From NCBI GenBank assembly GCA_035513115.1, contig DATKCP010000160.1, forward strand, positions 1 through 38,833: 38,833 nt of DNA. The letters are read 5' to 3'. The translations under genes and the position numbers were made by a program. Under the pieces are notes generated by a model. That model made no database searches, had not been told where the DNA came from, and saw nothing but the letters and a program-made list of their open reading frames with translations. Position 1 is the first letter of the stretch. Every line of letters starts with the position of its first letter. Source of the DNA: Candidatus Limnocylindria bacterium (lineage in GTDB: Bacteria > Chloroflexota > Limnocylindria > P2-11E). This document shows, piece by piece, positions 6,279 through 29,530 of the stretch.

Positions 6279-6476
6279 ATGACCGAAGGGCGGGTGATCC
6301 AAGGACCGTTGTCTGAAGTGATCGTCGGTGATGGCGAGTCATTCGAGGCCGCCCTTCGCCGTTTCAACAAGAAGATCCAGCAGGCCGGGATCCTCGCGGA
6401 AGCCCGCCGTCGCGAGTTCTACGAGCGCCCCGCCGCACGTCGCAAGCGCAAGGAAGCAAAGCGGCGCAAGCGCTAG
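6279..6476 (+). CDS. rpsU: 30S ribosomal protein S21
   Basis: The C-terminal 55 aa match S21 ([46 protein letters not shown]). The true start may be the in-frame TTG at 6309 or GTG at 6318, downstream of AAGGA at 6301-6305. Confidence 0.85.
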
Positions 6477-6504
6477 TTCGGAGAGCCCCGCCGTCGCATC
6501 CCCT

Positions 6505-7038
6505 ATGAAGCAGAGGCTCGAGAGCGATCTTCGGGCCGCCATGAAGTCGGGCGACACGTCGCGCCGTGACACCCTGCGCTTCCTGTTGGCCGCGATCCAG
6601 CGCGAGGGGGTCGACCGCCTCCAGGCGACGATCGAGCGTCTCAGCGCCGAAGGCAAGGACGAGACGGCGCGACAAGCGCATGTCGCCGAGCACCGCCCAT
6701 CGGACCTCGACGATGTCGCGGTCCTGGAGGTCCTTCAAAGGCAGGCGAAGATGCGCCGTGACTCGATCGAGGCATTCAAGAAAGGCGAGCGGCCCGAGCT
6801 CGCCGCCAAGGAAGAACAGGAACTCGCGCTGATCCAGGGCTATCTACCCGCGCCGATGTCCGACTCCGACCTGCGCGCGATCCTCGAACGCGTCGTCGCC
6901 GAGGCGGGCGCGGCCGGTCCGCGGGATATGGGAAAGGTCATGCCCAGGGCGCTGGCCGAGACGAAGGACCGCGCCGACGGCAAGAAGGTCGCCGGCCTCG
7001 TCGCCGCGATGCTCAAGGAGAAGGCGGCGCCCTCTTGA
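6505..7038 (+). CDS. GatB/YqeY domain-containing protein
   Basis: Starts MKQRLESDLRAAMKSGD and ends GKVMPRALAETKDRADGKKVAGLVAAMLKE, typical of YqeY. Conserved rpsU-yqeY linkage. The 5' part of track ORF 6328..7038 overlaps rpsU out of frame and was discarded. Confidence 0.85.
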   Translation: MKQRLESDLRAAMKSGDTSRRDTLRFLLAAIQREGVDRLQATIERLSAEGKDETARQAHVAEHRPSDLDDVAVLEVLQRQAKMRRDSIEAFKKGERPELAAKEEQELALIQGYLPAPMSDSDLRAILERVVAEAGAAGPRDMGKVMPRALAETKDRADGKKVAGLVAAMLKEKAAPS

Positions 7039-9017
7039 GCGCGTCGGCGCAGATCACCATCCTCATCCCCGATCCCGAGGAGATGATGTTCGTCACCGGG
7101 AACAACGACACGAACATCGATCGCATCGAGCGCGAGTTCTCGGTGAAGATCGTCTCGCGGGGCGCGGAGCTGCGCATCACCGGTGACCCGGCGAACGTCG
7201 CGCGCGTTGGCGAGCTCGTCGGCGCCATGCGCACGCTCTCCGACCGCGACGACAACCTGCGCAAACCCGCGCTGGAGCGGTTGATCGACGAGGCCAAGGA
7301 AGCACCTGTTGGCGCGCCGGAGCAGCTGCGCGAAGTCGTCGCGACGACCGTCCGCGGAAAGCGCATCACACCGCAGTCCGCGAATCAGCGACGCTACGTC
7401 GACGCGATCCGGACTCACGACCTGGTCTTCGCCACCGGGCCGGCCGGTACGGGTAAGTCCTACCTGGCGGTCGCGCTGGGTGTCGCCGCGCTACGCGATC
7501 GCAAGGCCGCGCGCCTCATCCTCACCCGGCCCGCGGTCGAGGCGGGGGAGCGGCTCGGATTCCTGCCGGGCGACCTCACCGAGAAGATCGATCCATATCT
7601 CCGTCCGCTGTACGACGCGCTGTACGAGCTCATGCCCCCCGAACGCTTCACCCGCGCGATGGAGCGCGGAGAGATCGAGGTCGCGCCGCTGGCGTTCATG
7701 CGTGGCCGCGCACAGCCGGTCTTCAGCAGGGTACTGACACCGACCGGCTTCACGGCCATCGGCGCGCTCTCGGTCGGAGACCTCGTTGTCGGCTCCGACG
7801 GACGGCCAACGGCGGTGCTCGGGATCTATCCGCAGGGCCGCAGGCCGGTGTATCGCGTGCGGACGCAGGACGGCGCATCGACGCTCGCCTGCGGCGAGCA
7901 CCTATGGGCAGTGGCCACTGCGAGCGATCGGCGTCGCGGCAAGCCTCCGCGGATCCTGCGGACGCGTGACCTGGTGGGACGGCCCCGTTCGGCGCATCAG
8001 CACCGATACGAGCTGCCGCTCCTGTCGCGGCCAGTCGAGTTCGAGCGCCTCCACACCATTCCCATGGACCCGTACGCCCTCGGTCTGCTCCTCGGCGACG
8101 GATACGTCACCGCGTCTACGACCCCGACGTTCACGACGGCGGACGGGGAGCTCGTTCCCGCGCCGGGGTCGCGCCTGCCGGGCACCGCGATCGTTCGCAA
8201 GAGGGCGCTCGATCACGTCTTGCGACGAAAAGGCGGTGGCCGAGGCGGGCGATCGGCGGACAAGTTCGTCCCGACGGAGTACCTGTACAACACTCCCGAC
8301 GTAAGGCTCGCGGTGATGCAGGGCTTGCTGGATGCCGACGGCGGACCGGTCACACAGGAAGCCCGAACGTGCCGGATCCAATACACGACCACATCTCCCC
8401 GTCTGCGCGAGGGCATGGTCTTCCTCGTTCGATCCTTTGGTGGAGTTGCGTACTGGCGGAAGCGCCGCGCCGAAGGACGCAAGCCCGGTCGGGCGCGCGG
8501 TCGCGATGTCCACAACCGCTCCGACGAGTACGTCGTCGAGATTCGTTTGCCAGCCGGTGTCGCGCCGTTCAGGCTCGCGCGTAAGCTCGATCTGTACGAC
8601 GCGCACGGGGGCGGCCGCCCGATGCGGTTCATCGACAGTGTTGAGAAAGCCGGCGAGCACGAGACCGTCTGCATCAAGGTCGCTGCCGCCGACTCCCTAT
8701 ACATCACCGATGACTTCATGGTCACGCACAACACGCTGAACGAGGCGTTCATCATCCTCGACGAGGCCCAGAACGCCACACCCGCGCAGATGAAGATGTT
8801 CCTCACACGTCTCGGCTACGGCTCGCAGGCCGTGGTGAACGGCGACATCACGCAGGTCGACCTCGAGAAGGACCAGCGCTCGGGCCTGGTGGTCGCGCGC
8901 GAGATCCTGCGGGGGGTCGAGGGGATCGCGTTCGTCGATTTCGACGAGCGGGACGTCGTCCGCCACGAGCTCGTTGCCCGGATAGTCCGGGCGTACGATC
9001 GGCACGAGAAGAAGTGA
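7035..9017 (+). CDS. phoH: PhoH-like ATPase precursor, interrupted by an intein (exteins 225 + 94 aa)
   Basis: Walker A is GPAGTGKS. The conserved PhoH block FMRGR|[14 protein letters not shown] is split by 341 extra residues. Removing them gives a 319-aa protein of normal PhoH length. TTGA overlap with the upstream stop. Confidence 0.9.
7710..8732 (+). mobile_element. Intein (341 aa) with a LAGLIDADG homing endonuclease domain and class 3 signature
   Basis: In-frame insertion that begins [13 protein letters not shown] (Ala1) and ends DDFMVTHN, followed by Thr at +1. Block B is [12 protein letters not shown] (His B:10, Trp B:12). Block F is ETVCIKV (Cys at the position usually Asp, F:4). Block G has Thr at G:5. 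The two LAGLIDADG motifs are [11 protein letters not shown] and [12 protein letters not shown]. Confidence 0.85.
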
Positions 9018-22475: not shown

Positions 22476-23338
22476 TCCTCGGTTCGCTCGGACGGGCGCG
22501 TGTCTACGATCGCCTCTTCGCGGGGCTTTGTCTTGGCGCGACGGCCCTGGCGATCGGGATACTCGCGTTGCTGCTGGTGAAGATCTTCGCCGATGGCGTT
22601 CCGACGCTGACGCTGAGCTTCCTCACGAGCTACCCGTCGCGGTTCCCGGCGGAGGCAGGTATCCGCGCGGCGATCCTCGGGACGCTGTGGCTCATCGGCC
22701 TCACGGCGGCGATCGCGGTCCCGACCGGGATCGCGGCCGCGGTGTGGCTGGAGGAGTACGCGCCACGGAACAACTTCCTGGCCCGCCTGATCGAGACCAA
22801 CATCGCGAACCTCGCCGGCGTTCCGTCGATCATCTACGGTCTGCTCGGCCTCGGCCTGTTCGTTCGGATCCTGCAGCTCGAGCGGTCGGTCATCGCGGGC
22901 GCGCTCACGATGTCCCTCCTCGTGCTGCCCATCATCGTCATCAGCGGGCGCGAGGCCCTGCGCGCGGTGCCGCGGTCGCAACGCGACGCCGCGTACGCGA
23001 TGGGCGCGACACGTTCGCAGGTGGTCTCGCGCATCGTCCTCCCGGCTGCCTACGGCGGCACGCTCACCGGCGTGATCCTGGCGCTGTCGCGTGCCATCGG
23101 AGAGACCGCGCCGCTGATCACGATCGGTGCGCTGACATTCATCGCGTTCGATCCCGACGGCCTTCTCAGCCCGTTCACCGTGCTGCCGATCCAGATCTTC
23201 AACTGGATCTCCCGGCCGCAGTCCGGGTTCCACGACATCGCGGCAAGCGCGATCGTCGTGCTGATCGTCACGCTGCTCTTCATGAACGCGCTCGCCGTCG
23301 TCGTCCGCGATCGGGCGCAACGGAGGTTGCGCGGATGA
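22472..23338 (+). CDS. pstA: Phosphate ABC transporter permease PstA
   Basis: Starts [14 protein letters not shown] and contains [29 protein letters not shown] overlap with pstC. The upstream part of track ORF 21752..23338 is out-of-frame overlap. Confidence 0.9.
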
Positions 23339-24189
23339 GCCCTGGCACCGCCACACCACTCGTGCAGAATCTCGACATGGTCCTCGAGCCCCCCGTCCGG
23401 AGGGACGTGCCTACCGAGACCGCGCCGGATCCCGCGTTCCGCATCAGTGGACTCAGCACGTGGTACGGCAAGGCGCAGGCGCTTCGCGACCTGACCCTGG
23501 ACCTCCCGAAGAACCGGGTCACGGCGATCATCGGGCCCTCGGGCTGTGGCAAGAGCACGCTGCTGCGCTGCCTGAACCGGATGAACGATCTCGTGCCGTC
23601 CTTCCGCGCGACGGGAGAGATCTTCTATCACGGCGACGACATCAACTCGGACAAGGCCGACCCCGTAATGCTGCGCCGGCAGATCGGAATGGTCTTTCAG
23701 AAGGCGAATCCATTCCCGAAGTCGATCTTCGAGAACGTCGCATTCGGCCCGCGCATCAACGGGTATCGCAAGGACCTCGGTGCGCTGGTCGAGCACACGC
23801 TCCGGCGCGCGTATCTCTGGGACGAGGTGAAGGACAAGCTGCATGCCAGCGGGCTCGCGCTGTCCGGTGGCCAGCAGCAGCGTCTCTGCATCGCCCGCGC
23901 CCTCGCCGTCTCGCCAGACGTGCTCCTCATGGACGAGCCATGCTCGGCGCTCGACCCCATCGCGACCTATCGGATCGAGGAATTGATCCGTGACCTGGCG
24001 AAGGACTACACGATCGTGATCGTCACACACAACATGCAGCAGGCGTCACGGATCTCCGATCGCACGGCCTTCCTCCTCTCCGGGGAGGAGCGTGTCGGCG
24101 AGTTGGTCGAGTACGATGTCACCGACACGATCTTCACGACGCCACGAGACAAGCGCACCGAGGCGTACATCACAGGGCGGTTCGGATGA
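23335..24189 (+). CDS. pstB: Phosphate ABC transporter ATP-binding protein PstB
   Basis: Walker [10 protein letters not shown], signature [14 protein letters not shown], Walker [13 protein letters not shown] and [12 protein letters not shown] overlap with pstA. Confidence 0.95.
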
Positions 24190-24884
24190 GCGCACGCTCG
24201 ATACACCATCGTGCCGCACTCGAAGACGGGCTGGCGCAGCTCGAGGCCGACCTTCGGGCCATGACCAGCCTCCTCGACGTCGCGATCGAGCGCAGCGTGC
24301 TGTCGCTGCAGACGCTCGACCAGCGCATTGCGGGACTCGTGATCGCCGGCGACGAGCACATCAACCGCGTGCGGTTCCAGATCGAGGACCGCGCCATCCA
24401 GCTCATCGCCACCCAGCAACCGATCGCGGGCGACCTGCGCTTCATCGTGGCCGTGCTCATGGTCGTCTCGGAGATCGAGCGCATGGGCGACTACGCGGCG
24501 GGGATCGCGAAGGTCACGCAGCTCCACGAGGGCCGGCAGCTCCTCAAACCCCTCGTCGATGTACCGGAGATGGCCCGACTCGTGCGCGCGATGCTGCGTG
24601 AGGCGGTGGACGCCTTTCTGCAGCGCAACGAGCACACCGCCGAGCGCGTTGCGCTCCAGGACGACGAGGTCGACCGGCTGTACGACATCGTCTACCGCGA
24701 GCTGCTCCACTACATGACCGAAGACCCGAGCACCATCGATCGCGCGACGTGGCTTCTCTGGGTCGCGCACAACCTGGAGCGCATGGGCGACCGGATCCAG
24801 AACATCTGCGAGCGCACGGTGTACGAGGTCACCGGCGTCATGCGCGAGTTCACCTCGCACAACCCGCGACCGCCGGAGGAGTGA
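24186..24884 (+). CDS. phoU: Phosphate signalling/transport regulator PhoU
   Basis: 232 aa with two PhoU repeats, each with the E(I/L)ERMGD motif ([18 protein letters not shown]). ATGA overlap with pstB. Confidence 0.92.
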
Positions 24885-29384: not shown

Positions 29385-29402
29385 AGCGAGGTCTCACGCG
29401 TT

Positions 29403-29491
29403 CCGACTCCCTACGCTGACATTACTCAGATCAGGTTCTGGGGTCTGCGGCTCACCGCACTCTCAGCGCCCCGCGGGCGCTCCCCCGTCGT
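29403..29491 (-). promoter_or_regulatory. TPP (THI-box) riboswitch aptamer
   Basis: The minus strand reads CGACGGGGGAGCGCCCGCGGGGCGCUGAGAGUGCGGUGAGCCGCAGACCCCAGAACCUGAUCUGAGUAAUGUCAGCGUAGGGAGUCG. It contains the conserved CUGAGA, ACCC, GAACCUGAUCUG-UAAU-CAGCGUAGGGA elements and a CGAC/GUCG P1 helix. Confidence 0.9.
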
Positions 29492-29530
29492 ATTCAGTTG
29501 TCGCTTCAAGTCTACCGCGTACCTGAAAGG

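Follow-up and report, generated by a model that had tools for sequence, protein, structure and literature searches.

A class 3-type intein with a shortened LAGLIDADG endonuclease in the PhoH of a Candidatus Limnocylindria bacterium

Class 3 inteins are defined, in the accessible part of Tori et al. [quoted passage not shown] PhoH is already among the recorded intein hosts: 21 inteins have been listed for this protein (COG1702) in Actinobacteria and Deinococcus-Thermus (Novikova et al. 2016, PMC4760082), the class 3 PhoH inteins of Mycobacterium fortuitum and M. xenopi (published accessions OBK00716 and EID13626) are aligned beside those of DnaB in Fig. 6a of Kelley et al. (2018, PMC6195587), and an intein has been reported in the PhoH of M. 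smegmatis (Woods et al. 2020, PMC7360933). Here we describe a further member of this group, which interrupts the phoH gene of a Candidatus Limnocylindria bacterium (Chloroflexota; assembly GCA_035513115.1, contig DATKCP010000160.1). All coordinates refer to the whole stretch of DNA that was analysed, hereafter the window (38,833 nt), and all features are on its forward strand unless stated otherwise.

The segment at nt 7710-8732 is very probably a bifunctional class 3-type intein located at the usual site of its family, MRGR/T (the slash marks the point of insertion), which has long been inherited together with phoH, and in which the splicing domain is intact while the endonuclease has probably lost its homing function.

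Anatomy and class 3 signature of the insert

The phoH gene (7035-9017) opens with a TTG start codon and comprises 660 codons plus a stop. The match of the encoded precursor to the Pfam PhoH model (PF02562; E 3.5e-87) is divided into two at residue 226, and the gap accommodates a match to LAGLIDADG_3 (E 6.7e-8 on the full protein and 1.3e-8 on the insert alone). The insert, corresponding to residues 226-566, is 341 amino acids (aa) long and in frame, and it interrupts a conserved motif in the ATPase core of PhoH directly after FMRGR (7695-7709), 7 residues upstream of Walker B (ILDEAQN, 8754-8774). Walker A (GPAGTGKS, 7437-7460) is located well upstream of the insertion. It is flanked by an N-extein comprising PhoH residues 1-225 (7035-7709), which has a weak KH-like N-terminus, and by a C-extein (8733-9017, including the stop codon) that opens with Thr+1 (8733-8735). 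Removal of residues 226-566 restores a PhoH of 319 aa, and a search with this extein sequence returned intein-less PhoH proteins as its 120 best matches; they are 302-319 aa long, nearly all exactly 319, and 90-97% identical, and the named ones among them belong to Candidatus Limnocylindria or Chloroflexota. An earlier note on this DNA, made from its letters alone, had recognised the 341-aa insert splitting a 660-aa PhoH, and its coordinates and all of the motifs it quoted were reproduced.

The insert begins with block A (13 residues, 7710-7748), the first residue of which is Ala and provides no nucleophile. Block B (intein residues 55-66, 7872-7907) contributes Cys61 at B:7, His64 at B:10 and Trp66 at B:12. 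Block F (ETVCIKV, residues 318-324, 8661-8681) contains Cys321 at F:4, the predicted initiating nucleophile, and block G (FMVTHN, residues 336-341, 8715-8732) contains Thr339 at G:5 and the C-terminal pair His340-Asn341, after which comes Thr+1. Ala1, Trp66, Cys321, Thr339 and Thr+1 make up the complete set of class 3 markers. In an alignment of 107 PhoH inteins H64, W66, C321, T339, H340 and N341 are invariant. The wider family behaves similarly: among 177 related inteins, parsed from the 150 best cluster representatives at 50% identity, Cys occupies F:4 in all 177, the WCT triplet is complete in 175, and position 1 is not Cys, Ser or Thr in 169. Judged by sequence, the PhoH insert displays every feature by which class 3 is recognised. 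Cys61 (7890-7892) is itself a conserved residue: at least 90% of PhoH inteins, and 89 of the 177 wider relatives, have Cys at this position. Block B reads CxxH here as against TxxH in class 1 inteins or DxxH in the M. smegmatis DnaBi1 intein, in which B:7 is Thr and Asp, respectively (PMC6195587).

Searched by sequence against the chains of the Protein Data Bank (PDB), the insert matched inteins only, namely gp41-1 (E 1.7e-9), M. chimaera DnaB-1 (E 2e-8), the class 3 M. smegmatis DnaBi1 (6BS8, E 9.4e-7) and PI-SceI (E about 1e-3). A profile built from 12 family sequences matched a gp41-1 variant engineered toward class 3 (C1A, F65W, D107C; E 2.7e-15), the class 3 inteins of M. chimaera DnaB-1 and M. 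smegmatis DnaBi1 (E 2e-8 to 4e-7) and, over the endonuclease domain, PI-SceI (E 1.3e-9). The quoted motifs together with these PDB matches are far beyond chance. An AlphaFold2 model based on 107 family sequences reached a pLDDT of 88.3 and a pTM of 0.88, and was used in place of an earlier run on a 12-sequence alignment, which was discarded (pLDDT 58). The Hint part of the model is highly confident, with pLDDT 92-98 over residues 1-90 and 96-98 over residues 311-340. Foldseek placed the model close to PI-SceI (E 2.3e-16, TM 0.70), with further matches to the intein endonucleases TliVMA, PhoVMA and PI-PfuI, while the Hint part matched M. chimaera DnaB-1 (6riy), M. smegmatis DnaBi1 (6bs8), the Prp8 and gp41-1 inteins and the Hedgehog Hint domain. 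With Pfam, the Hint models stayed below threshold on the intein (Hom_end_hint 0.0078, Hint_2 0.15), and for this reason the Hint assignment rests on the sequence, profile and fold matches in the PDB. The domain search proposed in the earlier note thus found LAGLIDADG_3 through Pfam and Hint similarity through the PDB. Sequence, profile, predicted structure and comparison within the family all support the note's reading of the segment as a class 3 intein with a LAGLIDADG endonuclease. A BIL domain and a non-splicing domain of a PhoH subfamily were considered as well, and both were rejected on account of the His-Asn/Thr+1 junction and of the clean empty sites described below.

Comparison with the solved class 3 inteins shows a homologous Hint domain (DnaBi1, 6BS8, and M. 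chimaera DnaB-1, 6RIX and 6RIY; E 2e-8 to 9e-7, Foldseek probability 1.0) with an equivalent triplet, Trp66/Cys321/Thr339 in the window intein corresponding to Trp67/Cys118/Thr137 in DnaBi1. However, these two are mini-inteins without an endonuclease and are hosted in DnaB, whereas the window intein has an endonuclease and resides in PhoH; in addition, DnaBi1 has Ser+1 and Asp at B:7, in place of Thr+1 and Cys. With the class 3 prototypes, the inteins of Bethlehem DnaB and Deinococcus radiodurans Snf2 (PMC2807308), the window intein shares a non-nucleophilic residue 1, the WCT triplet and Thr/Ser+1, but these inteins reside in other host proteins, at other sites, and identity is only about 33-47%; the Bethlehem intein begins with Pro. 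The Hint plus double-motif LAGLIDADG architecture is common to PI-SceI of yeast VMA1, TliVMA and PI-PfuI, which are class 1 inteins (Cys1), larger, and equipped with an extra DNA-recognition region.

Since Ala1 also occurs in class 2 inteins, a different splicing route may be envisaged, either a class 2 (KlbA-like) one in which the +1 residue attacks the N-terminal junction directly, or a class 1-like one in those relatives that begin with Ser. The latter account for about one fifth of metagenomic PhoH inteins at MRGR/T, in which the WCT triplet is kept (e.g. P0015, P0019, P0023 and P0086), as against only 1 of the 74 species-representative genome loci considered below. We give such a route hardly any chance, because class 2 inteins combine Ala1 with Cys+1, have no block F Cys or WCT triplet and, like class 1 inteins, carry Asp at F:4 (PMC6195587), whereas here the +1 residue is Thr, Cys at F:4 is invariant and the triplet is complete. 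The nearest solved relatives, moreover, are class 3 or class-3-converted inteins.

Distribution of the family and inheritance of the intein

Among the candidates scored in a protein database search with the insert, 1087 matched at E <= 0.001. All of the best 120 are PhoH proteins, 58-77% identical to the insert, and every one of them in which both junctions are present reads MRGR followed by (A/S)QP at the beginning of the intein and THN followed by (T/S)L at its end. In a scan of one genome per species, relatives of the intein were found in at least 575 genomes, the best match among the scanned GTDB representatives being 76% identical. Of the 80 best genome loci that were kept, 74 could be parsed, and in all 74 the intein is inserted at MRGR/T. 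Actinomycetota dominate the 80 best loci (Mycobacterium, Lentzea, Micromonospora, Kribbella, Solirubrobacterales, Thermoleophilia and Acidimicrobiia), which also include Chloroflexota (L001, L002 and L012), Acidobacteriota (Pyrinomonadaceae and Chloracidobacterium), and one metagenome-assembled genome (MAG) each of Myxococcales and Planctomycetota. The Mycobacterium loci, such as that of M. kyorinense (L004), encode an intein 59-62% identical to that of the window at the identical MRGR/T site. When the M. kyorinense intein was used as the query, no named M. smegmatis, M. fortuitum or M. xenopi entry was among the 120 matches listed; from the other Mycobacterium genomes we infer that the published M. 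fortuitum and M. xenopi inteins occupy the same site.

The earlier note had suggested that PhoH might be a new host protein and insertion site for class 3 inteins, a proposal superseded by the published PhoH inteins (PMC4760082, PMC6195587 and PMC7360933) and by the occupation of MRGR/T in every parsed locus. The window intein adds one more, ordinary copy to a very large family that is already known, at a PhoH site that is likewise known. It shares its host protein with the inteins of M. fortuitum, M. xenopi and M. smegmatis, and with the first two the class 3 signature (Ala1 and the WCT triplet); the mycobacterial inteins reside in Actinomycetota and are about 359 aa long, whereas the window intein belongs to a Chloroflexota host (Limnocylindria) and is 341 aa long through a deletion in its endonuclease.

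More distant relatives with the same signature (33-47% identity) are found in SNF2 helicases and at two other PhoH sites, GxGK/T (Walker A) and GFLPG/T. Six metagenomic proteins (P0326, P0327, P0332, P0331, P0341 and P0344) contain two or three inteins with the class 3 signature at GxGK/T, GFLPG/T and MRGR/T, and two of them, P0326 and P0332, were confirmed as PhoH by Pfam. Phages carry related inteins as well, in line with the connection already published between them and class 3 inteins (PMC5050341): such inteins were found in 617 phage records, of which 299 are mycobacteriophages, and most of the genes concerned are annotated as terminase or DNA helicase. Mycobacteriophage genes with these annotations contain the nearest relatives from phages (up to 40.8% identity), and a phage PhoH gene with a related intein of 34.5% identity is present in MK557849.1 (Caudovirales GX15bay) at 23330-24355.

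In some database records the N-extein is missing. Two entries annotated as 'PhoH family protein', P0255 (Nonomuraea) and P0081 (Mycobacterium sp.), are 474-475 aa long, start at the Met of MRGR and are devoid of the whole N-extein, including Walker A. The late start looks like an artefact of start-site annotation caused by the intein, and, as judged from their similar lengths, P0257, P0274 and P0280 probably have the same one.

Intein-less phoH alleles, which the earlier note had recommended looking for in relatives, are represented by the 120 best extein matches and by three contigs (L081, L083 and L085) that are syntenic with the window in the order yqeY - phoH - 7TM-HD - ybeY at 84-86% nucleotide identity. 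Their alignments to the window break exactly at 7709/8733, being without nt 7710-8732, and in L081 the empty site reads GCGTTCATGCGCGGGAGA directly followed by ACGCTTAATGAAGCCTTCATC. Three intein-bearing relatives (L001, L002 and the JGI contig L082) encode inteins that are 80-83% identical and exteins that are 91-95% identical to those of the window, as measured over the whole extein or the part of it that was available; a fourth, L012, is more distant than these.

The age of the insertion may be judged from these relatives. Between the window and L001 the synonymous divergence (dS) is 0.72 in the exteins and 0.70 in the intein, with a ratio of non-synonymous to synonymous divergence (omega) of 0.05 in the exteins and 0.16 in the intein (0.12 in the Hint part and 0.19 in the endonuclease part). 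Since the two dS values are alike, the intein and phoH appear to have been inherited together since the window and L001 lineages split. The comparison with L001, L002 and L082 together gives the same picture, dS being 0.65-0.70 in the intein and 0.65-0.74 in the exteins, and at the nucleotide level the intein is about 83% identical, compared with 83-85% for the flanking sequence.

These values bear on a competing account, according to which a recent horizontal transfer, with Actinomycetota as one possible donor, brought the intein into this phoH, so that the codon usage of the intein would be an un-ameliorated trace of the donor and the site a new one. It could draw on the fact that all 120 closest PhoH proteins are intein-less, on the placement of the Chloroflexota inteins as one clade among those of Thermoleophilia and Solirubrobacterales, and on base composition. 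The G+C content at third codon positions (GC3) is 0.798 in the intein versus 0.876 and 0.916 in the exteins, and falls below that of all 20 other window genes sampled (0.804-0.924). The excess of A/T-ending codons for which the earlier note had argued, as a sign of horizontal acquisition, is numerically true (69 of 341 codons in the intein versus 35 of 319 in the exteins; Fisher p = 0.0013), although the specific codons it named differ by only a few counts. Its interpretation does not hold as far as a recent event is concerned, because dS is equal in intein and exteins and because low GC3 recurs in the relatives: the intein was below the N-extein in 6 of the 6 relatives checked, the gap being clear in L001, L012 and M. 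kyorinense, only marginal in Lentzea and Micromonospora, whose loci are high in GC, and absent relative to the C-extein in L082. GC3 was rejected as evidence of recent transfer on these grounds, and the lower value seems to reflect either the family as such or weaker selection. With intein and flanks equally diverged and MRGR/T being the standard site of the family, a recent acquisition is improbable. The acquisition appears instead to be an old one, followed by long co-inheritance with phoH under purifying selection.

In a neighbour-joining tree without support values the inteins broadly follow host taxonomy. The topology is compatible with an old cross-phylum transfer, and such a transfer is likely. 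The corresponding extein tree, in which intein-bearing alleles are scattered among empty ones, covers sequences of 90-96% identity, has no support values and is too weak for gains and losses to be counted.

Deletion in the endonuclease domain

The LAGLIDADG homing-endonuclease domain, which resembles PI-SceI, extends over approximately residues 115-290 of the intein (8052-8579). It contains the first motif, LGLLLGDGY (residues 124-132, 8079-8105), and a second one at residues 203-212 (8316-8345), and the two catalytic Asp residues (Asp130 and Asp210), one per LAGLIDADG helix, are both kept. However, the window intein has 341 aa versus typically 357-360 aa in its relatives, a difference which corresponds to a single in-frame gap in the alignment: the consensus segment VIVANPVTAALRELGLAGT is absent between GGRGG and RSADKFVP. 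At the DNA level the deletion is located at about 8244-8248 and amounts to a net 54 nt, or 18 codons, compared with nearly all relatives. In the profile alignment the deleted segment corresponds to ENPLWDAIVGLGF of PI-SceI, a helix in the first LAGLIDADG half, and the confidence of the AlphaFold2 model is lowest (58-74) at residues 131-180. The 18 lost residues are predicted to form a helix in the first LAGLIDADG subdomain, and homing activity has probably been lost with them. Thus, while the endonuclease recognised in the earlier note is present with both motifs and their catalytic Asp, it is not intact.

Independent in-frame deletions in the first LAGLIDADG subdomain were also observed in P0043, P0101, P0114, P0118 and L008; P0118, at only about 62% identity to the window copy, is without almost the same 18 residues.

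A deletion of this kind raises the question of whether the whole element is a decayed remnant that no longer splices, in which case phoH would effectively be a pseudogene or encode an inactive fusion. A precedent is known in the class 3 intein pseudogene Arth_1007 of Arthrobacter (PMC3196547), and splicing of PhoH inteins is apparently unreported (stated for that of M. smegmatis in PMC13347336). Against this, the reading frame is open over 660 codons, all family-invariant splicing residues are kept, and the deletion is confined to the endonuclease domain, which mini-inteins lack entirely. The low omega of the Hint part and of the exteins and the high confidence of the Hint model point in the same direction, making a dead intein very improbable. 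On the sequence evidence, the splicing domain appears intact and under purifying selection, and the deletion is best viewed as decay of the endonuclease, of the kind expected at a late stage of the homing cycle, in an intein that otherwise functions.

Proposed splicing pathway, gene neighbourhood and significance

By analogy with the class 3 pathway of Bethlehem DnaB and M. smegmatis DnaBi1, as described in PMC2807308 and PMC6195587, respectively, the 660-aa precursor would be translated first. It would not be an active ATPase, since 341 residues part the MRGR motif from Walker B. Cys321 (F:4) would then attack the Arg225-Ala226 bond, assisted by Trp66 and His64 of block B, and form a thioester-linked branched intermediate, from which the N-extein would be handed to Thr+1. 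Cyclisation of Asn341 with the help of His340, followed by an O-N shift, would yield the 319-aa PhoH and the free intein.

Several considerations weigh against an intein that splices by this route and is dead for homing. The splicing of the M. smegmatis PhoH intein is stated to be unstudied (PMC13347336) and that of any PhoH intein is apparently unreported, so the block F branch pathway is proposed here from signature residues and homology. Cys at B:7 differs from the residues of DnaBi1 and of class 1 inteins, and the details of N-terminal junction activation may differ accordingly. As to the endonuclease, its loss is deduced from the deletion and from low model confidence, with both catalytic Asp remaining, and the omega of about 0.19 averages both lineages and cannot date the loss.

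A further, speculative proposal, which we consider a long shot, concerns the nearly invariant Cys61, taken to lie beside Cys321. The two residues might pair in a reversible disulfide or bind a metal, so that redox or metal stress would decide whether PhoH matures. In lineages with a decayed endonuclease, such as that of the window, the intein would then be kept as a post-translational switch of an ATPase related to stress and not as a selfish element.

Upstream, phoH overlaps a yqeY-like gene by 4 nt, and the same arrangement is found in the intein-less syntenic loci. The upstream ORF (6328-7038) encodes 236 aa, while its orthologues in L081, L083 and L085, which are located after a gene for small ribosomal protein S21, have only 164-176 aa; its true start is probably downstream of 6328. 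Elsewhere in the window, a TPP riboswitch (Rfam RF00059; 69.3 bits, E 9e-12) is located at 29391-29496 on the reverse strand and is unrelated to the intein.

The value of this locus is modest and lies partly in correcting the notion of PhoH as a new host of class 3 inteins. The PhoH MRGR/T intein is among the larger class 3 families, being present in at least 575 species representatives and in more than 1,000 protein clusters, and its hosts reach beyond the Actinobacteria and Deinococcus-Thermus of the 2016 list to Chloroflexota, Acidobacteriota and other phyla. In some RefSeq records of the family the start is placed at the MRGR Met, at the cost of the N-extein, a fault that intein-aware annotation would correct. 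The local interest of the window copy is its Chloroflexota host, the abundance of empty-site alleles and the truncated endonuclease. The Limnocylindria set, in which alleles with the intein and alleles with an empty site are about 85% identical in DNA and in which the endonuclease occurs in full-length and in deletion-bearing form, represents a natural system in which to study the homing cycle.

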